Positions 9,768 through 18,761 of a stretch of DNA of 64,000 bases are shown piece by piece (within the stretch, counting starts at the first letter, position 1; each line of letters opens with the position of its first letter). Source of the DNA: Escherichia coli (GTDB lineage: Bacteria > Pseudomonadota > Gammaproteobacteria > Enterobacterales > Enterobacteriaceae); NCBI RefSeq assembly GCF_030013205.1, contig NZ_CP122648.1; one strand, 5' to 3'. Position numbers and translations under genes: made by a program. The notes below the pieces were generated by a model that worked only from the letters and a program-made list of their open reading frames with translations, was not told where the DNA came from and made no database searches.

Positions 9768-10709
9768 ATGGCTACTATTGCGCAATCAAAGAAACAAAAA
9801 AAACTTAAAATTGGTTTTTACACCAGCAGTTCTGGGACTATCCGCAGCCATTCAGTTGCTAAGCAAGCAATTGAAAATCTGTATAATACTTGCGTAACCG
9901 TTACGAATAATCATTTTGATACCATCTATAGAAATAAAAAGTTAAAAATAGCTTTTATAAATAAAGATACAAAAGCTAAATATTTCTTCGGCTACATGTC
10001 ATGCTCACGAGAAGAGTATCTCCTTCCTTATATTGGTGATGAACACTGGAATGAGCACAACATACCACTAGATGATAAAAAATACATAGTCGAAAGAACC
10101 TATTTTTTATATTATTACGATAGTGATATTTTAATATTAACTCAAAATCATCTTGGGCCGAAAGAATCGGATTTAGCTTATCTGCTTTACAGCCAGAGTG
10201 GTAATCCTGGAAATAACTTTTCATTCCAAGCCATCTGGAAAAAAGAGAGCGTCAAAGAGCTACTTGAAACAGGAAGTACTTTGAGAAGTTGTGATATTGT
10301 CCTGGCTGCTCCCAGGAACTTTGATGCAACAAATTACCAGCTAAATAGTTCATTTTCTAAGGAACTGGTAAATATGATGGTAGGGCTGGGTGGAACACGT
10401 CTCAAGTTAAATCTAAGGGGACGTGCATCAGGGAGAGTAAAAGTCAAAGGTTATTTATCAGATCTCGTTAAGGATGGTATTAAAGAACTCCTTGAAAAAA
10501 TGCCGGGAATTGTAAAAAAAGCGGCAGTAACACAGCCCAAAAATACCGTTGAACAAAGTCTTCTTGATCAGGTACTCATTTCAGAAAAAAACATATATAC
10601 CGTTAATGGTTATGGCACTGATAGTGATGTTCTGCAAGCCATGATTTCTGCTAAAATTGATAACAATGAATACCTTAAGCAATACGATATCAGCAAAAAG
10701 AAGGTATAG
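9768..10709 (+). CDS. RexA-like protein (candidate exclusion/abortive-infection component), uncharacterised
   Basis: 313 aa, soluble, AT-rich codons; first gene of a tightly linked pair; weak recalled similarity to lambda RexA (GFY near N-terminus, GP..SDL segment). Confidence 0.45.
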   Translation: MATIAQSKKQKKLKIGFYTSSSGTIRSHSVAKQAIENLYNTCVTVTNNHFDTIYRNKKLKIAFINKDTKAKYFFGYMSCSREEYLLPYIGDEHWNEHNIPLDDKKYIVERTYFLYYYDSDILILTQNHLGPKESDLAYLLYSQSGNPGNNFSFQAIWKKESVKELLETGSTLRSCDIVLAAPRNFDATNYQLNSSFSKELVNMMVGLGGTRLKLNLRGRASGRVKVKGYLSDLVKDGIKELLEKMPGIVKKAAVTQPKNTVEQSLLDQVLISEKNIYTVNGYGTDSDVLQAMISAKIDNNEYLKQYDISKKKV

Positions 10710-10712
10710 GAT

Positions 10713-11156
10713 ATGTTATTGAAATACTTAAGAAACCTGATTGTAAGTGTTTTTTGCACCTTGTTCCTACTGAGGTATATCCCTCAGATGGGGCATGCTG
10801 ACATACTTACAGCCTCCGGGGTTATTTCAACTGTATCCGGTATTTTATTTGGTTTTATTTTAGCCACAATATCAATTTTTAGTGCTGCTAGCGAAAACTC
10901 AAATGGAATAATAAAAGCATTAAAAAACAACAACATACTTCAAGTTATTATTGTAAATCTATTAACCGCAGGTGCATCTTTAATTACGGCATGCGTTATT
11001 GCTTTGATAGCAATGTTTGCCAATGAAAAGACATTGTTACATGGAGAAAAAATAGAATTTATTTTAATTATCGAATCTTTATCTCTTCTTATCATTTCAG
11101 TAATAACTTTTGCCTTTACATGGAGAAAAGTAAACTGGATACTCCCCCACATTTAA
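10713..11156 (+). CDS. RexB-like small inner-membrane protein with four predicted TM helices
   Basis: 147 aa, four hydrophobic helices, LRYIP motif after helix 1 similar to lambda RexB (FRHYIP, as recalled); starts 3 bp after the upstream gene. Confidence 0.5.
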   Translation: MLLKYLRNLIVSVFCTLFLLRYIPQMGHADILTASGVISTVSGILFGFILATISIFSAASENSNGIIKALKNNNILQVIIVNLLTAGASLITACVIALIAMFANEKTLLHGEKIEFILIIESLSLLIISVITFAFTWRKVNWILPHI

Positions 11157-11179
11157 AAAGGGCAGAAATGCCCTTTTTT

Positions 11180-11557
11180 CTACTCCATTTCAAGTTTAAC
11201 ATCCAGCATTGAAAGGCATCCATCAATAAACCCTTCAGCCATCTGTATCTCTATACGTATCAATTTCTCATCTTTTTTGCGAGCTCTTGCAAGCTTTCTT
11301 TTCGAGATGCCATACAGGTAATGGGCCACAATCAAAGAATGCTCGTACGGTTTTCGCTTTTTAAGAAGAGCAAGACAACCTTCAATAATTAATGCATCAC
11401 TATCTGAACAAGCCTGACGTGTTTTGCTTGTATAGGGAAGAAGCCCTTTAAACCCAGCAGCTATAGGAGAATAGTCTACTCCTGAACTATCACTCGCCGC
11501 CCATGCTCCCCAACGATCCAGAACCATTTGAATATCACGCATCAACTTTCTCCACAA
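11180..11557 (-). CDS. Late-gene antiterminator Q (QuuD/QuuQ-type)
   Basis: 125 aa; MRDIQMVLDRWGAWAA... matches the N-terminus of K-12 prophage Quu proteins as recalled. Confidence 0.75.
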   Translation of the reverse strand: MWRKLMRDIQMVLDRWGAWAASDSSGVDYSPIAAGFKGLLPYTSKTRQACSDSDALIIEGCLALLKKRKPYEHSLIVAHYLYGISKRKLARARKKDEKLIRIEIQMAEGFIDGCLSMLDVKLEME

Positions 11558-11559
11558 AA

Positions 11560-12555
11560 TCAGGCCAGCACGCCAGTTGCCAGCGCACGATCGATAAAAC
11601 GAAATATCAGCTCCAGCTGGGAGCCATACCTCTCTTCAAATGTCACGGTATCCGCATGCAGCTCGTCGTGATGCTTTCTGCACAAAGGCAACACAAAAAG
11701 GTCATGCGCTTTTGTTCCCATTCCACCCTGACCGTAACCTATCAGGTGGTGGGGATCATCAGCGGGCTTTCCACAACATGCACACGGCTGTGTCTTAACC
11801 CAGCGCGTGTACTTTTCATTAACCCAGCGGCGACGTTTTGGGCGTAACATAAAAGACTCCGGCGACTCCGGATCCACTTTCAGCGCCAGCACCTTTTTCG
11901 CCTTATCCTGGATGATGCTGGTGGCAGGAACCGAAGGCACAAGGTCACTTTCCCGGGTGACAGACGGCACAACAGGCTTCGGTAATCTCAGTGCCTTACG
12001 GGCTGCACTTTCCGGTAAGGCATCCGCCAGGTCATTACGAATCAGCCACCAGCACAGTTCCGGCATTGTCACAACGTGACTGTCATCAAAACCGAGATCC
12101 CGACGCACAACAGACAACACCCAGCGGGCACAGTTATCCGTTGCCATTGATTCCAGCCGTTCCGTGAACTGATCGCGCAGCTGGTTATCGCAGTGCCAGC
12201 ACAGACGGATTGCACCCGGAGCGTGTCGCATTGTGGTCATGTTCTCGCTGTGCCAGTCGGAATGAGGCCACTGGCAGCCTTTTTTACGAAGTAACCAGCT
12301 TTCAAGACATTCCACGCCACCAGCACGACGGATCACTGCCTCATTGCGGAACACGGCCCGAACGGCAGGATCATCCGCCAGCGGTTGTGACGCCGCGGGA
12401 ACGGCACCACTGGCGAAAGATGAATAATGCTCCGGCTCAGGCTCCAGCAGGACACGCCCCTGCATAAACAGGGGCATCAGCTCTGAACCGGGCCTGAACA
12501 ATACGATCCCCATACGCGGGGCAATTTCAGGGGTCAGTAGTGCTCTCACGGTCAC
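11560..12555 (-). CDS. DUF968-family lambdoid phage protein with C-terminal HNH-like Cys/His motif
   Basis: 331 aa; C-terminal CACCGKP...HHLIGYGQGG...CRKHHDELH. Confidence 0.5.
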   Translation of the reverse strand: MTVRALLTPEIAPRMGIVLFRPGSELMPLFMQGRVLLEPEPEHYSSFASGAVPAASQPLADDPAVRAVFRNEAVIRRAGGVECLESWLLRKKGCQWPHSDWHSENMTTMRHAPGAIRLCWHCDNQLRDQFTERLESMATDNCARWVLSVVRRDLGFDDSHVVTMPELCWWLIRNDLADALPESAARKALRLPKPVVPSVTRESDLVPSVPATSIIQDKAKKVLALKVDPESPESFMLRPKRRRWVNEKYTRWVKTQPCACCGKPADDPHHLIGYGQGGMGTKAHDLFVLPLCRKHHDELHADTVTFEERYGSQLELIFRFIDRALATGVLA

Positions 12556-12556
12556 C

Positions 12557-13366
12557 TCAATGAACGGTATCGAGCAGCTTTAACAGCTCAGGGAATCGGG
12601 ATTCGAAGAAATGCGGCTGCGTCTCGCGCGGATTTGCGGGACTGGTGATGTTCTTGCCGAACATGCAGCCTTTCGCTGTCAGCGACCAGAATTTTTTGAT
12701 GTTGTTAATCGCGGTACGGCTGTATCGTTCGCGTTGTTCAACGATCCCCAGCTTCGCCATCTGGTGATATGCCTGATTAGCCGTCAGGCGGATACCATAC
12801 TGTTTCAGCAGTGCACTCAGCGACAGCGTAGGGCGACTTGAGCCATCAGGCGCGTCAGCAGGAGCATCAATGGCATAGCGCGGTGCCAGATTCGGTAAGC
12901 CAACAGCCTCCTGGAGTTTCTGACAGGCACCAAGCACTGAAGAGTTAGACAGGTTTAACTCCCTGCGCATAAAGTCCAGCAGAATCACTCCAGCCTGCAT
13001 CTTGTCAGCAGCCTGCCCGGATAATTTTTCCGGTGCGCTGGTTACCATATCGAAAGTACGGATCACCTTCAGATGGAATGACGGGCTGATCCACATTGCA
13101 TAGGCATACACCAGTTCTTTGCAGACATACGTCCCCTGGTTATTTCCGCCATTAATGACGCTAACTGGTTGATTTTGTTCCAGAGGCGGAATTCCACCCT
13201 CGGTGAAAAGTTGTTCAATCAATTCACAGGTTTGCTTATTGGAGAGCCAGTATTTCGGGCGGTTTTTTTGTTCTCCCCCGGCTGCCCTGTGCAGATCGTT
13301 CAGGCTGTAACGCCCATAAGCATCACGACGAACTTCAATACCATCAATAACCATCAGATTATTCAT
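12557..13366 (-). CDS. KilA-N domain protein (antirepressor/Roi-like)
   Basis: 269 aa; N-terminal VIDGIEVRRDAYGRYSLNDLHRAAGG...RPKYWL has the KilA-N signature. Confidence 0.6.
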   Translation of the reverse strand: MNNLMVIDGIEVRRDAYGRYSLNDLHRAAGGEQKNRPKYWLSNKQTCELIEQLFTEGGIPPLEQNQPVSVINGGNNQGTYVCKELVYAYAMWISPSFHLKVIRTFDMVTSAPEKLSGQAADKMQAGVILLDFMRRELNLSNSSVLGACQKLQEAVGLPNLAPRYAIDAPADAPDGSSRPTLSLSALLKQYGIRLTANQAYHQMAKLGIVEQRERYSRTAINNIKKFWSLTAKGCMFGKNITSPANPRETQPHFFESRFPELLKLLDTVH

Positions 13367-13385
13367 ACTTCGTTTCTCCTCTTAA

Positions 13386-13589
13386 TCAGGCGGCTGCACC
13401 CGCCGGTTTCTCATACTTACTGATAGTGATCTCGACCTTCCCTTTCGGGATAACCGGTCCCCACTCCACCAGCATTCTTTTCACCTGTCTGTCGTCTTCC
13501 CACACACCCGCGTGGGTCAGGGCGTCAAACAGCGCCTTGTTATAGTTGTCCAGATCGCGGATCCGGTTATTTGCCGTTAAACTGTTCAT
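13386..13589 (-). pseudogene. rusA: Holliday-junction resolvase RusA, C-terminal fragment (about 60 of 120 aa)
   Basis: RDLDNYNKALFDALTHAGVWEDDRQV...KGKVEITI matches the RusA C-terminal half; the N-terminal half is missing. Confidence 0.65.
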
Positions 13590-14137
13590 GCGTTAGTTTC
13601 TCCACAGACACAAAACGCCACGACGCCCGGAGCTGCACACTCGCGGGCGTCACTCTTTTCTGGAGCGCAGAAAATTTTGTAGACCAGTGCCGCATGCTCC
13701 TGGAGCTTCGAAATTGACAGATACAATTCATCATTAATTGCTGTCTGCTCGTGTGGCTCCACTACCCCATCTTCGATTGCCGAACGAATCTGCTTTGAGT
13801 AACTCCCGATCTGTTCGATGACTTCCAGCAGGCGCTGGTTTATATCTGCGTTCTCTACTTCCTCAATTTCAGGAAGCGATACAAACACCCCACCAGCAGA
13901 CTGTGCGACAGCATCCGCAATGTAGTGAGTGCCAGCAGCACGCTGTAAAATCATTGCCCATCCCAGCGGGAAAATCTGATCGCCATCTGCACGAAGGCGG
14001 TTGAATAAAGCGTTCTCTGTAACATCCAGCCACTCAGCAGCTTCAGCGTAACCCCCCGGCAACGCCGCGATAGTTTTTCTGACAGCTTTCACGTACCACT
14101 CAGGCTGTTTTTCCACTTTCCAGTGATGATTACCCAC
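13586..14137 (-). CDS. Early regulatory protein immediately downstream of cro (YdaT/CII-like position); C-terminus possibly altered by a deletion junction
   Basis: 183-aa ORF overlapping the cro stop; family assignment is by position and weak recollection only. Confidence 0.35.
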   Translation of the reverse strand: MGNHHWKVEKQPEWYVKAVRKTIAALPGGYAEAAEWLDVTENALFNRLRADGDQIFPLGWAMILQRAAGTHYIADAVAQSAGGVFVSLPEIEEVENADINQRLLEVIEQIGSYSKQIRSAIEDGVVEPHEQTAINDELYLSISKLQEHAALVYKIFCAPEKSDARECAAPGVVAFCVCGETNA

Positions 14138-14390
14138 GGCTTACCTCCTGTTCCTGTGGTTTAAACCCATTCTGGTTTTGGCTAGATTGAAAACGTGCCG
14201 GATAAAGAATCTGCATTTCGCTGATTTCACCCTTAAAAAAATTGGCCAGACGTTCTGCAAGATCGATAGATGGAATTTGTTCCAGTCTTTCAATACGACT
14301 CAGCGTCGCTGGATTGACCTGAACGCCAGCAGCAACATGCTGCAAAGTAAATCCGTGCGCCTTACGCACATTCCGTAATGGTGATTGCAT
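14130..14390 (-). CDS. cro: Cro-like HTH (XRE-family) repressor
   Basis: 86 aa with HTH (GFTLQHVAAGVQVNPATLSRIE), divergent from the cI-like gene across a 97-bp operator region. Confidence 0.75.
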   Translation of the reverse strand: MQSPLRNVRKAHGFTLQHVAAGVQVNPATLSRIERLEQIPSIDLAERLANFFKGEISEMQILYPARFQSSQNQNGFKPQEQEVSRG

Positions 14391-14487
14391 ATGACCTCCA
14401 CATATTGCGTGATGAGCATATTATTTCACGCAAATATTTTGCGCAAGTTGATTTGCTTAACGCGCAATAAAGAAATGTAATAAACGC
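14391..14487. promoter_or_regulatory. Right operator/promoter region (oR, pR, pRM) with repeated TTGC-N7-GCAA-type sites
   Basis: Sites TTGCGTGATGAGCAT (14405-14419) and TTGCTTAACGCGCAA (14453-14467), plus palindrome CGCAAATATTTTGCG between them. Confidence 0.5.
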
Positions 14488-15180
14488 ATGAACATAGGAA
14501 ACCGAGTCAGACAACTTCGCCAGGCGAAGAACATGAAAATCGCCGATCTCGCTGAAGCAATAGGAGTGGATGCGGCGAATATCTCACGCCTGGAAACAGG
14601 TAAGCAGAAACAATTCACTGAACAAGCCCTGAGTAATATTGCCAAGAGCTTAGGTGTTGATATTGCTGATCTCTTTACCTCAGACTTCAAAAGTAATACT
14701 GTATGTAAAAACAGTATTAGTGAGGATGTTGCGCAGGTGAAGGATGTATTCCGTATTGAAATGCTGGATGTCAGTGCCAGTGCGGGAAATGGCCTTATCC
14801 AGGGCGGTGATGTCATTGATGTGATTCATGCCATTGAATACAGAACTGATAATGCTGTATCGATGTTTGGTGGACGGCCAGCCAATCACATTAAAGTTAT
14901 CAACGTTCGTGGGGACAGTATGTGTCCAACCATTGAGCCAGGAGATCTCATCTTCGTTGATGTCAGTATCAATCAGTTTGATGGAGATGGTATCTATGTA
15001 TTTGGTTTTGATGATAAAATTTATGTCAAACGACTGCAAATGATACCTGACAAACTACTGGTGATTTCTGATAACCAGATTTACCGTGAATGGGGAATTA
15101 CCAGCGAAAATGAACACCGGTTTATGGTCTTTGGAAAGGTCTTAATCAGCCAGTCACAAACCCTTAAGCGACACAATTAA
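14488..15180 (+). CDS. cI: CI-like prophage repressor (HTH-XRE N-domain and S24 LexA-like peptidase C-domain)
   Basis: 230 aa; N-terminal HTH (MKIADLAEAIGVDAANISRLETGK), C-terminal ...GDSMCPTIEPGDLIFVD...YVKRL with Ser/Lys dyad pattern. Confidence 0.85.
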   Translation: MNIGNRVRQLRQAKNMKIADLAEAIGVDAANISRLETGKQKQFTEQALSNIAKSLGVDIADLFTSDFKSNTVCKNSISEDVAQVKDVFRIEMLDVSASAGNGLIQGGDVIDVIHAIEYRTDNAVSMFGGRPANHIKVINVRGDSMCPTIEPGDLIFVDVSINQFDGDGIYVFGFDDKIYVKRLQMIPDKLLVISDNQIYREWGITSENEHRFMVFGKVLISQSQTLKRHN

Positions 15181-15200
15181 CCCTTACCTCCTCATCAATT

Positions 15201-15225
15201 AGCCACCCAAAGGTGGCTTTTCATC
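15201..15225 (+). terminator. Rho-independent terminator after cI
   Basis: AGCCACC-CAAA-GGTGGCT hairpin followed by TTTTCAT. Confidence 0.55.
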
Positions 15226-15229
15226 ACCC

Positions 15230-15280
15230 TTTAAATTGCATATCTCGCAACAAAAACACTTGCATAATGCGCAACTTCAT
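15230..15280 (+). promoter_or_regulatory. Putative left operator/promoter (oL/pL)
   Basis: Two sites with the same TTGC-N7-GCAA pattern as oR: TTGCATATCTCGCAA (15236-15250) and TTGCATAATGCGCAA (15260-15274). Confidence 0.45.
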
Positions 15281-15882
15281 TTTATCTTTCTTTCCAGACA
15301 AACAAACAAGGTACTAACAAAATTTGGTTGTAACACGGCGTATGGCACATGCGTCGTTAGCGGTCTGGGGACGTTAAAGGGGACAATCCACTCCTTGCTC
15401 GGGCAAACAAACCAGGTAGCCGGAATGTGCAAGTCAATGATGATGCTGATAAGACGCCTAACCAGCGTGGCGATTCGGTTTGACGCCTGGGAAGAGACCA
15501 GGGTGCAACGATGAGGGCATTTATGGAGCCGCGACAAAGTGTGGTGCCGTAACTGGCTAAGTGCTCTCAGCGTTGTGGTAATCCGCGAAATGGCGCGGCG
15601 GTAAGTATGGCGGGGTTACTCTTTCCCCGTTGAGGACACCGGATTGTCAGGTTGACCATACGCCTGAGTGACAACCCCACCACAACAGCCACTGCTTTGG
15701 CGGTACCAGTTTGTACCCTTGCTTCCGGCTGGTACCGCTCTTTTTACAAAACAGAGAAGAGCATCACCGGACGACGAGCTCATAACCCAATCCATCCGGG
15801 CGGCTGCCACCGCAGGTGTTCTTCTCCGTTTTGTGGAGAAACCAACCGACCTTGCAGGGTCGATATGATGAGGAGCAGCAAA

Positions 15883-16245
15883 ATGGCTAGCGAACGCAGT
15901 ACTGATGTGCAGGCATTTATTGGGGAGCTGGACGGCGGCGTATTTGAAACCAAAATCGGCGCAGTTCTCAGTGAAGTCGCTTCCGGTGTGATGAACACGA
16001 AAACCAAAGGTAAGGTCTCGCTCAACCTGGAAATCGAACCGTTTGATGAGAATCGTGTGAAAATCAAACACAAACTCTCGTATGTTCGCCCGACTAACCG
16101 CGGGAAAATTTCCGAAGAAGACACCACCGAAACGCCGATGTATGTCAATCGCGGTGGTCGCCTGACTATTCTGCAGGAAGACCAGGGACAATTACTGACT
16201 CTTGCTGGTGAACCTGACGGAAAACTCCGCGCAGCAGGTCATTAA
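15883..16245 (+). CDS. YfdP-like prophage protein (CPS-53 family), 120 aa
   Basis: GAGGAG ribosome-binding site 7 nt upstream of ATG at 15883; size and position match yfdP ahead of the yfdQ/yfdR homologues. Confidence 0.5.
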   Translation: MASERSTDVQAFIGELDGGVFETKIGAVLSEVASGVMNTKTKGKVSLNLEIEPFDENRVKIKHKLSYVRPTNRGKISEEDTTETPMYVNRGGRLTILQEDQGQLLTLAGEPDGKLRAAGH

Positions 16246-16310
16246 TATCGTTCTTAATTAACTGATTATTTATCTCATCACTGAATATCTTTATATAGTG
16301 AGGACTTATT

Positions 16311-17135
16311 ATGTCTCAGAACTTAGACGCAACCGCAATTAATCAAATCCATGCCCTTATTTCTGCTCAGGGTGTTAATGAAATTATCAGTAAGATTGGT
16401 GCCGATGCTGTGGCATTGCCTGAGAATTTCCGCATTCATGATCTGGAAAAATTTAATTTAAATCGCTTCCGTTTCCGTGGTGCGCTTTCCACTGCCAGCA
16501 TCGATGACTTTACCCGTTATTCTAAAGATCTTGCAGATGAAGGCACCCGCTGCTTTATCGATGCTGATAATATGCGTGCCGTCAGTGTGCTTAACCTGGG
16601 TACTATTGATGAACCAGGTCACGCAGATAACACCGCCACTCTCAAACTGAAAAAGACAGCACCGTTCTCTGCTCTGTTGTCTGTTAATGGCGAGCGTAAC
16701 TCCCAGAAATCACTGGCAGAATGGATTGAAGACTGGGCCGACTACCTTGTGGGCTTTGATGCTAATGGTGACACCATTCAGGCAACCAAAGCGGCTGCGG
16801 CAGTCCGTAAAATCACAATTGAAGCAAACCAGACCGCTGATTTTGAAGACAATGACTTCAGCGGCAAACGCTCCCTGATGGAGTCTGTCGAAGCGAAAAC
16901 CAAAGACATTATGCCAGTGGCATTTGAATTTAAATGCGTTCCGTTTGAAGGCCTGAAAGAACGTCCGTTTAAATTACGCCTCAGCATTATCACTGGCGAT
17001 CGTCCTGTACTGGTTCTGCGCATTATTCAGCTGGAAGCGATGCAGGAAGAAATGGCTAACGAATTTCGTGATCTGCTTGTTGAGAAATTCAAAGACAGCA
17101 AAGTAGAAACCTTTATTGGTACTTTCACCGCCTGA
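16311..17135 (+). CDS. YfdQ-like protein (DUF2303), 274 aa
   Basis: Length and gene order identical to CPS-53 yfdQ; no catalytic motif recognised. Confidence 0.5.
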
Positions 17136-17263
17136 TTTCATTACTGCAAATGCCCCTGCGGGGGCATTTATGGAAACGTAATTAACTCAATAATCACCGG
17201 ATGGTGAGAGCTTCCTTTTAGCAGAATTCAGCGCGGTGCAGCGCATATAAAGTGGAGAACTAA

Positions 17264-17800
17264 ATGTCATTTATTAAAACTTTTTCCGGGAAGCATTTTT
17301 ATTATGACAAGATAAATAAAGACGACATCGTGATTAACGATATCGCAGTTTCCCTTTCAAATATCTGTCGCTTTGCAGGACATCTTTCACACTTCTACAG
17401 TGTCGCCCAGCATGCGGTGCTTTGCAGCCAGCTGGTGCCGCAGGAATTTGCTTTTGAAGCGTTAATGCATGATGCAACAGAAGCATATTGCCAGGACATC
17501 CCAGCGCCACTGAAACGACTTCTTCCTGACTATAAACGGATGGAAGAAAAAATAGACGCCGTAATCCGTGAGAAATACGGGTTACCCCCGGTTATGAGCA
17601 CGCCTGTGAAATATCCCGATCTCATCATGCTCGCAACCGAACGCCGTGATCTCGGGCTTGATGATGGCTCTTTCTGGCCTGTACTGGAAGGTATCCCGGC
17701 AACAGAGATGTTCAAAGTTATTCCACAGTCGCCAGGCCATGCCTACGGGATGTTTATGGAACGCTTTAACGAGTTATCGGAGTTACGCAAATGCGCATGA
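17264..17800 (+). CDS. YfdR-like HD-domain 5'-deoxynucleotidase, 178 aa
   Basis: HD-type metal-binding residues (...HLSHFYSVAQHAVL...MHDATEAY...); size equals K-12 YfdR. Confidence 0.6.
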   Translation: MSFIKTFSGKHFYYDKINKDDIVINDIAVSLSNICRFAGHLSHFYSVAQHAVLCSQLVPQEFAFEALMHDATEAYCQDIPAPLKRLLPDYKRMEEKIDAVIREKYGLPPVMSTPVKYPDLIMLATERRDLGLDDGSFWPVLEGIPATEMFKVIPQSPGHAYGMFMERFNELSELRKCA

Positions 17801-17834
17801 GTCTTTCAACTGCACAACCATTGGAGGGGTAGCA

Positions 17835-18029
17835 ATGAACAACTTAATGACAACTAAACAGGTCGCCGACTTCTGTGGTGTTTCAATATCAACAGTGCTT
17901 CGCTGGAACAGCATAAACCATAGAACAGGTAAGAAATATAGACCAGACTTTCCTGATCCTGATATAAAATCCTGTCCCAATAAATGGGCATCACACAAGA
18001 TTTATAGGTTTGCGGGTATTATCGAATAA
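17835..18029 (+). CDS. AlpA/Xis-family excisionase-like DNA-binding protein (TorI-like)
   Basis: 64 aa from ATG at 17835 (GGAGGGG ribosome-binding site upstream); MTTKQVADFCGVSISTVLRW is an AlpA-type HTH. Confidence 0.6.
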   Translation: MNNLMTTKQVADFCGVSISTVLRWNSINHRTGKKYRPDFPDPDIKSCPNKWASHKIYRFAGIIE

Positions 18030-18761
18030 CATTTATTTGTTTCGATGTTAGCTGACACATCTATGGCACAGAGCAAAACCGAATATGATTGTCCACTCTG
18101 TGCTAGTAGAAAACATAGATATCAACTATCCGTACCAATCTGTGAGTATAGAATAAATTAATCTGCTCGCAACTAATAGCCTCTAACAGCCAATACAGTG
18201 CCACCGATGATACAAAAAACAATACTCCAAAAAGCGTCTGGTATTGGATTGTCATTACTAGCTTCCGAGGTGAGATATGCATTAAGCCAGGTGCGCTGGA
18301 AAAGTTATGTTTCCCTAATGGAATTGCCCATGACTCAACATATTTTTTCTCTGTTGCTAGCGAATAGACCTAAAATGATAAGCACCATTAACATCAACAG
18401 CGCCCCCTTGAGCTCTTCTTTTCGGTGAAAAGCCCATCATCAACGGCGCATTGCCTAACCCGAATTCTAGCCACCTTAGCCAGTATTTACCCCCTAGATA
18501 CCAAATGCTTACCCCTCTATTTGCTCTGATAATACTTTATTGCATAATCCCTCACTACATTAGACACTGCGTCAATCCTGCCTTCTATAGCTTGTTTTAA
18601 CGCTTTCGGCACATTCCTCTGAACCAGCCCAAGATATGGCTGTTAAATTTTTACTTACATTCAAAAAAACTTTAACTTTTGCAATCAGATCATATGATGT
18701 TGTTAATGGTAATATTCTGAATCTAAAATGACTTAAGAGTTCGTAGGTTAGAGGGACATGT

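Follow-up and report, generated by a model that had tools for sequence, protein, structure and literature searches.

What is the role of a compact, AT-rich pair of genes that lies, on a strand of its own, between the antiterminator gene and the lysis genes of a defective lambdoid prophage? The question is raised by positions 9,768 to 11,156 of a 64,000-nt stretch of the Escherichia coli contig NZ_CP122648.1 (assembly GCF_030013205.1), referred to here as the window. An earlier sequence-only reading of the window had likened the two genes to rexA and rexB of phage lambda. We propose, with a probability of about 0.6, that the two genes make up a phage-exclusion (abortive infection) module of the two-component RexAB type, in a sequence family distinct from lambda RexA/RexB. 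The likeness to RexA/RexB, at a distance from the lambda proteins, is backed by a fold match, by conserved pairing of the two genes and by weak profile matches that exceed their controls, and an anti-phage function would follow by analogy. To our knowledge RexAB is the oldest known abortive-infection system, and its trigger and mechanism are still unresolved.

The gene pair

The rexA-like gene (9768..10709, plus strand) begins with ATG and encodes a 313-amino-acid (aa) protein that is predicted to be soluble, falls in the Pfam family DUF6731 and has a modelled fold of the RexA/RdgC type. The rexB-like gene (10713..11156, plus strand), also with an ATG start, encodes a 147-aa predicted membrane protein with four transmembrane (TM) helices and a charged central loop. 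The open reading frame (ORF) list and the sequence agree with the previous description of two co-oriented, AT-rich genes with a 3-bp gap and these product lengths; the GC content of the pair is 34.4%, whereas the window as a whole has 49%, the lysis genes have 55.7%, and Q and the DUF968 and KilA-N genes have 51.5%. At the junction (10699..10712, plus strand), as read from the sequence, the 3' end of the first gene contains an AAGAAGG ribosome-binding site (RBS) about 8 nt 5' of the second start codon, and the two genes meet as TAG-gat-ATG with a spacer of 3 bp. This layout is consistent with translational coupling of the rexA-like and rexB-like genes.

Both products match PHROG families of unknown function, the large protein phrog_7651 (E 1e-151) and the small protein phrog_8552 (E 1e-63). 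In comparison with an 87%-identical allele, the proportion of synonymous differences (pS) was ~0.79, which is saturated, and that of nonsynonymous differences (pN) was 0.08 for the large gene and 0.18 for the small gene, for pN/pS ratios of ~0.10 and ~0.24, respectively. Since pN is low while synonymous sites are saturated, both genes are under purifying selection, and the low pN/pS, the PHROG matches and the many homologues together identify them as real genes rather than chance ORFs. The RefSeq/PGAP annotation starts the small gene at an internal methionine, yielding a 122-aa product (10289-10657 of locus L001, the 100%-identical locus of strain W13-16); this skips window positions 10713-10787 and loses the first TM helix. 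The 147-aa form that includes the first helix is the one conserved among homologues, and is also the form annotated in phage cdtI (orf53).

The large protein and RexA

The large protein was assigned to DUF6731 (PF20505) by hmmscan, with an E-value of 2.1e-10 over residues 34-260, and the identical protein in RefSeq is labelled 'DUF6731 family protein'. The DUF6731 family profile collected 250 cluster representatives (50% identity clusters) at E <= 0.001. An AlphaFold model of the large protein, built on 24 homologues, reached a predicted local distance difference test (pLDDT) score of 79. When this model was compared with solved structures using Foldseek, lambda RexA (8TWQ) came first, with E 8.9e-7 and 1.7e-5 for its two chains, followed by E. 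coli RdgC, and no other structure fell below E 0.001; RexA was the sole strong match in a search of 48,164 chains and headed both structure searches. Identity to RexA is ~13% over the structural alignment. Because lambda RexA is itself described as a structural homologue of RdgC (PMC11077077), the two fold matches reinforce each other. The two-domain, RdgC-like organization that characterizes the RexA fold is present in the model.

Sequence profiles point weakly in the same direction. An 80-sequence DUF6731 profile was aligned to a six-sequence RexA alignment using hhalign, which returned 215 co-linear columns (query 15-275, RexA 3-237) at E 0.0044 and a probability of 7.9%. The score of 27.0 compares with 19.2 for the reversed control and 19.6 for the best of 30 column shuffles. 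The alignment pairs the invariant D-x9-G-P-x3-D-L pattern of DUF6731 (G-P-x3-(S)DL) with D99...G109-P110...D-L115 of RexA. Two short motifs had been likened to the lambda proteins, and the one in the large protein held up: its N-terminal GFY is paired with G4-F5-Y6 of RexA, and the phenylalanine is invariant in both families. As modelled, the large protein shares the RexA fold, and fold and profile together make it very probably a distant homologue of RexA. In an hmmsearch of the PDB with the broad DUF6731 profile, which did not retrieve RexA, eIF2-alpha appeared as a marginal match and was taken as noise.

The small membrane protein and RexB

Kyte-Doolittle hydropathy placed four hydrophobic segments in the small protein, at residues 1-20, 31-61, 74-109 and 112-137, and AlphaFold (pLDDT 85) modelled it as a bundle of four extended helices, at 2-22, 28-62, 75-102 and 114-146. 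The two methods agree on the four TM helices predicted earlier. By the positive-inside rule (K4, R7; K69/K72; R138, K139), both termini and the charged central loop would be cytoplasmic. Conservation among the partner proteins is concentrated in TM2 and the loop that follows it, which in most members reads D/N-R/K-x-L-x-x-N-M/L-x-x-T-G-H-Y.

A shallow profile of 12 close sequences found no match to RexB by hhalign. A broad partner profile of 20 sequences, which included distant partners from the 16 genomes surveyed below, matched a 13-sequence RexB alignment at E 1.6e-4 with a probability of 51%, over 38 columns in corresponding places of the two proteins (44-82 of the profile, 42-79 of RexB) that cover TM2 and the start of the central loop. 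Its score of 31.1 compares with controls of at most 18.0, and two of the 20 partners touch the Pfam RexB model at E 0.06. The other motif, LRYIP, did not stand: it aligns with FRHYIP of RexB in BLASTP only (E 0.012, which is not significant), is unconserved in the partner family and lies outside the region that carries the profile signal, and its likeness to RexB is probably due to chance. In a Foldseek search of the viral models in BFVD, the best match of the small protein was an uncharacterized siphovirus protein (E 0.01) and the second a 165-aa protein of phage Sbash (E 0.02, probability 1.0, TM-score ~0.5). Sbash gene 31 encodes 165 aa, and going by this length the entry would be gp31. Hydropathy and the model thus establish a RexB-like architecture for the small protein, and the profile match is only suggestive of RexB homology.

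Pairing and position across relatives

Relatives of the DUF6731 protein were examined at 107 loci, 16 from diverse Proteobacteria genomes (including Halomonas, Vreelandella, Stenotrophomonas, Oxalobacter, Mariprofundaceae, Acidiferrobacterales and Enterobacter) and 91 from viral contigs. A homologous partner follows immediately 3' on the same strand in 105 of the 107, and both exceptions have a truncated or disrupted large ORF; co-occurrence of the two genes is therefore conserved, and the genes were likewise paired when homologues were looked up one by one. Most partners have 139-175 aa, with one 113-aa ORF, and in distant homologues the genes often overlap by 17-116 bp or are separated by 2-28 bp.

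At nearly all enterobacterial loci, Q lies on the opposite strand 16-45 bp past the partner's stop codon, with the lysis genes upstream, also on the opposite strand. This Q-convergent layout holds for alleles that are 100%, 82-88%, 61-65% and 43-48% identical to the window's, as well as for a distant enterobacterial branch at ~20%. In the complete genome of phage cdtI, orf54 is 100% identical to the large protein and is followed by orf53, the two lying between Q and a methyltransferase plus the lysis cassette. In some non-enteric members, by contrast, the pair is found near the repressor. In Pseudomonas phage AUS531phi the order is cI, then the A gene, then the B gene; in Vreelandella (L023) a cI-like gene ends 57 bp upstream of the pair; and two further loci have cI-like genes 1.2-1.4 kb upstream, the non-enteric pairs being on the same strand as the repressor. 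The window pair is not beside cI, as it lies ~3.3 kb from a cI-like gene at 14488-15180. Because some family members occupy the position of lambda rexAB after cI, as in AUS531phi and Vreelandella, the enterobacterial branch is fairly called displaced, the word that had been applied to the window pair before any relatives were examined.

In Vibrio (L008/L009, 5001-6478), a 39%-identical DUF6731 gene and its partner are situated amid dehydrogenase and epimerase genes, with a resolvase-type helix-turn-helix gene upstream. Since no Q or cI is in view at this locus, the pair also travels outside recognizable lambdoid prophages.

Proposed mechanism

The mechanism that we propose is drawn by analogy with lambda RexAB, with Sbash gp30/gp31 and, above all, with RexABpp of Pseudomonas putida. 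The 313-aa DUF6731 protein, with its RdgC-like fold of two domains, would act in the cytoplasm as a counterpart of RexA, probably as a DNA-binding dimer; dimerization and non-specific DNA binding have been assayed by size-exclusion chromatography with multi-angle light scattering and by electrophoretic mobility shift for RexA, Sbash gp30 and RexApp (PMC12894663, PMC11077077). Upon infection by another phage, the large protein would sense a phage product or a replication or recombination intermediate and would then activate its co-translated 147-aa, four-helix partner in the inner membrane. The activated partner would depolarize or permeabilize the membrane, bringing growth to a halt and aborting the infection.

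Transcription of the module, which lies on the other strand from the late genes, probably starts at a promoter of its own, and the transcript would end at a bidirectional hairpin shared with Q. An AT-rich leader (9706..9767, plus strand) precedes the rexA-like gene, carries the RBS TAAGG at 9758-9762 and is identical in phage cdtI. No promoter-like site in the leader reached the threshold of the promoter scan; the module's own promoter presumably lies within it. At the other end, a hairpin of the form A5-GGGCA-GAAA-TGCCC-T6 (11155..11179) lies where the rexB-like gene and Q converge, between their stop codons. Its predicted folding energies are -13.4 kcal/mol on the plus strand and -13.0 kcal/mol on the minus strand (z -4.5 and -4.0), and none of 200 shuffled sequences folded as well. 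The hairpin was not picked up by a consensus terminator scan, and it is probably a bidirectional intrinsic terminator for both transcripts. With its own promoter, the opposite strand and the shared terminator, as proposed, the module would be expressed in the lysogen independently of Q and of the rest of the defective prophage.

Weighing the RexAB reading and its alternatives

Several results weigh against the RexAB-type reading. BLASTP of the large protein against lambda RexA was not significant (E 0.25), and no RexA match was found for it in Pfam (PF15969, E <= 10) or PADLOC (PDLC02339, E <= 1), a model that lambda RexA matches at 9e-110; the large protein is outside the RexA sequence family as currently modelled. 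The small protein matched neither RexB model (PF15968; PADLOC PDLC02340, which lambda RexB matches at 9e-61), and lambda RexB was not among its BFVD matches. More generally, sequence searches of PADLOC, NCBIfam and the PDB returned nothing useful for either protein. The hhalign probabilities are low (7.9% for RexA, 51% for RexB) and come from shallow alignments of six RexA and 13 RexB sequences; overall similarity to the lambda proteins is weak, as remarked earlier. No paper in the searchable literature names DUF6731, PF20505 or the protein accessions, and function is read here from sequence and models. Finally, RexA-like proteins also have non-defence roles, such as modulation of the lysis-lysogeny switch (PMC11077077), and the two proteins of phage Butters have exchanged roles (PMC12894663).

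These last two points each suggest another reading of the pair. It could serve the prophage's own cycle, with a DNA-binding RexA-like protein that tunes the lysis-lysogeny switch or recombination and a membrane protein that merely tethers or regulates it. Lambda RexA biases the bistable switch toward lytic growth independently of RexB (PMC11077077); the fold is also common to RdgC, which modulates RecA, and some members of the family do reside in the immunity region beside cI. The enterobacterial pair, however, is far from the immunity region and intact in a prophage without terminase, head or tail genes, its four-TM partner is kept in 105/107 loci although a soluble switch modulator would not need one, and one site is shared by three divergent alleles (~100%, 62% and 44% identity), as is typical of accessory cargo that diversifies. 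We regard a role in the prophage's own cycle as unlikely. A little less likely still is a reversed logic, in which the soluble protein is a toxic effector that the membrane protein sequesters until infection. Butters gp30/gp31 are described in this way (PMC12894663), and the sequence does not fix which partner is the effector, but the membrane protein has that role in four of the five described Rex-like systems, including the two Gram-negative ones, lambda and P. putida (PMC12894663), and the window's partner family is best conserved in TM2 and the central loop, where mutations in Sbash gp31 abolish defence (PMC6426596).

It is also conceivable that the likeness to RexAB is convergent or superficial and that the genes form an unrelated soluble-plus-membrane module, such as a superinfection exclusion system acting at the membrane to block DNA entry, or an addiction module of the toxin-antitoxin kind that keeps the prophage stable. 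Sequence similarity at the detection limit, the ease with which common small four-helix membrane proteins come to look alike, and the lack of a match in the defence libraries all speak for convergence. RexA as the sole strong structural match among 48,164 chains speaks against it, as do the independent weak signals of both partners, which exceed their controls, and the coincidence with rexAB of gene order, sizes, coupling and, in some members, position after cI; its probability is put as low as that of a role in the prophage's own cycle. A Kiwa-like system was considered as well. Kiwa consists of the membrane protein KwaA and the DNA-binding DUF4868 protein KwaB, and its composition, a four-TM protein with a soluble protein of ~310 aa, is similar to that of the window pair. 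Its gene order is the reverse, neither window protein has a PADLOC match at E <= 1, no DUF4868 match was found in Pfam, and no Kiwa structure is among the PDB matches, which RexA heads in both searches. With neither a KwaA/KwaB model match nor a structural match, Kiwa was rejected as very improbable.

The cargo site and the surrounding prophage

The RexAB-like pair runs opposite to the phage genes around it, all of which are on the minus strand in the ORF list and in the annotation of L001. On one side it is convergent with a PF06530-type antiterminator Q gene (11180..11557, minus strand; 'antiterminator Q family protein' in L001), which forms one edge of the cargo site. On the other side are two holin-like ORFs (7138..7795, minus strand) and an M15 endolysin gene (6758..7141, minus strand), both identified from the ORF list and the L001 annotation, and the earlier placement of the pair between Q and the lysis genes is thereby confirmed. 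The edge on the lysis side is a conserved non-coding block of ~95 nt (9612..9705, minus strand) directly 5' of the DUF6731 gene. This block hardly varies between alleles with just 44-65% protein identity and with different neighbours otherwise, or next to very different cargo (L039, L005, L006, L003, L083, L132 and L133), and it was found in 49 phage records, including Stx2a phages, SfII, SfIV and phiP27. It contains a minus-strand hairpin and a T-run at 9629-9617. An Rfam scan of 7800-11700 returned tRNA only, with no match for the block, and the block as a whole folds no better than shuffled sequence. We read it as the probable late promoter/terminator (pR'/tR'-like) region in this group of lambdoid phages. 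A late promoter within the 3' end of the rexB-like gene was rejected, as no conserved non-coding signal is present there and the block sits on the other side of the module.

The site between Q and the block holds different cargo in other phages. In phage Stx2a_1447 the order is Q, a different pair of opposite-strand genes, the block, a small ORF, a methylase gene, three tRNA genes and stx2A; in SfIV the holin gene adjoins the block, with an opposite-strand cassette on the block's other side. The claim that the pair lies in the slot that holds stx (the Shiga toxin genes) therefore needs correction, since in Stx2a_1447 stx lies beyond the conserved block and the Q-proximal site is taken by another two-gene cassette. 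If the block is the late promoter, the window pair lies between Q and that promoter and is transcribed away from it, whereas stx lies downstream and would depend on late transcription. Genes 24/23 of Stx2a_1447 (L132, 2632-4195) and 49/48 of SfIV (L133, 1711-3093) form opposite-strand pairs at the same Q-to-block site. They encode a soluble protein of 343 or 356 aa together with a four-TM protein, which has 179 aa in Stx2a_1447, while the SfIV locus ends within the corresponding gene. This cassette had no Pfam or PADLOC match and no profile similarity to DUF6731, RexA or RexB, and it may represent another family of soluble-plus-membrane cassettes in the hotspot.

An AraC-family regulator gene (8746..9596, minus strand), divergent from the pair, was regarded as neighbouring cargo outside the module. 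A 1-nt deletion shortens a T-run at ~8979-8985 from T8 to T7 and breaks the gene into two ORFs (8973..9596 and 8746..8946); aligned with the intact gene of W13-16, which encodes 283 aa, it is identical at 919/920 positions with one gap. The frameshift reported earlier for this gene thus goes back to a single-base deletion, which may reflect a genuine frameshift, variation at a slippage-prone run or an error in sequencing. The AraC gene is missing from most other loci that carry the pair. The AraC gene is separated from the holin-like ORFs by a tRNA gene (8257-8328, minus strand), annotated as tRNA-Gly in W13-16, that is downstream of the block, where Stx phages carry tRNA genes. Just past the endolysin gene, an AT-rich (32-40% GC) opposite-strand gene (6093-6686, plus strand), labelled lipopolysaccharide core heptose(II)-phosphate phosphatase in W13-16, is likely to be another accessory (moron) gene.

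Among 5,426 complete E. coli genomes, 24 carry the window's allele at a query coverage of 80% or more, and the prophage is of a type found in porcine enterotoxigenic E. coli (ETEC) strains. The W13-16 prophage is defective, with truncated pseudogenes for terminase, NlpC/P60 and RusA. A comparison of window positions 3820-18046 showed that the window prophage lacks two further segments of the W13-16 prophage, L001 1260-4575 and 13072-14594, the latter including the Rha regulator. With these two segments gone, the window copy is even more decayed than the prophage of W13-16, and the RexAB-like pair is nonetheless intact.

Broader significance

A wider interpretation is put forward tentatively, with somewhat less than even odds: DUF6731 proteins and their four-TM partners may form a large, unrecognized RexAB clade across Proteobacteria (250 clusters at 50% identity) that was ancestrally located after cI, and its enterobacterial branch may have moved to a hotspot between Q and the late-promoter block that holds exchangeable abortive-infection modules with membrane effectors. 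The kind of system is a known one; what is new is that a broad DUF family, along with its partner, is placed among systems of the Rex kind, together with the cI-adjacent link and the Q-proximal relocation. A 2026 paper counts five Rex-like systems described so far (PMC12894663). If DUF6731 and its near-obligate membrane partner do belong with RexA, hundreds of natural variants would be available for finding residues that act in sensing and channel activation, the PADLOC RexA and RexB models would see only a narrow slice of Rex-like systems, and the Q-to-late-promoter-block site of lambdoid prophages would be a place to seek further defence cargo. The pair is carried by porcine ETEC strains and by a cytolethal-distending-toxin phage, among others, and could influence the resistance of such strains to phages, including therapeutic ones.

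Comparison with known systems

Lambda RexA/RexB (PF15969/PF15968; 8TWQ) resemble the window pair in being prophage-borne and encoded by an operon in which the gene for a soluble protein precedes that for a four-TM protein, with 279 and 144 aa in lambda and 313 and 147 aa here, so that the match in size, order and topology from which the sequence-only reading set out is upheld. The RexA fold is the best structural match of the large protein, weak co-linear profile similarity extends to both proteins, and some members of the window family directly follow cI, as rexAB does. The window proteins differ from those of lambda in having no match to the RexA and RexB sequence models and only ~13% identity in the structural alignment, and the enterobacterial pair, being located between Q and the late region and convergent with Q, is presumably not co-transcribed with the repressor. 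A cI-adjacent position is not universal among accepted Rex-like systems, as Sbash, Butters and Rubeelu are without it (PMC11077077). E. coli RdgC (2OWL/2OWY), a chromosomal housekeeping protein without a membrane partner, is a much weaker structural match than RexA.

RexABpp of P. putida prophage P1 (PP_5643/PP_5644; PMC12894663) was compared by its description only. RexApp is larger than the 313-aa window protein (37.5 kDa with its tag), RexBpp is longer than the 147 aa found here (mutations extend up to residue 181), and RexABpp is near a cI-like repressor (PMC12894663). Mycobacteriophage Butters gp30/gp31 are likewise a prophage-carried, Rex-like soluble-plus-membrane pair, and they depart from the lambda logic in having a soluble effector that is sequestered by its membrane partner (PMC12894663).

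In the actinophage systems Sbash gp30/gp31 and CarolAnn gp44/gp43 (PMC6426596, PMC6426606), defence needs a soluble protein as well as a four-TM protein, it has been proposed to work through loss of membrane potential, and the membrane protein's central cytoplasmic loop matters for function. Sbash gp31 is the RexB-like half of a validated gp30/gp31 defence, which substitutions in the central loop abolish (PMC6426596). The Sbash pair too is displaced from its repressor, and the 165-aa Sbash protein is the second-best viral fold match of the window's small protein. The hosts of these phages are Actinobacteria, unlike those of the window family, and hhalign found no sequence or profile similarity between gp30/gp31 and the window families. 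Neither Sbash gp30/gp31 nor the AUS531phi homologue matches the PADLOC RexA/RexB models. Queried as single sequences in the same hhalign test, Sbash gp30 scored 12.0 against RexA and gp31 17.9 against RexB, at the level of background, compared with 27.0 and 31.1 for the DUF6731 family and its partner. By this measure, and with Sbash represented by single sequences, DUF6731 proteins and their partners come out nearer to lambda RexAB than the accepted actinophage pairs do.

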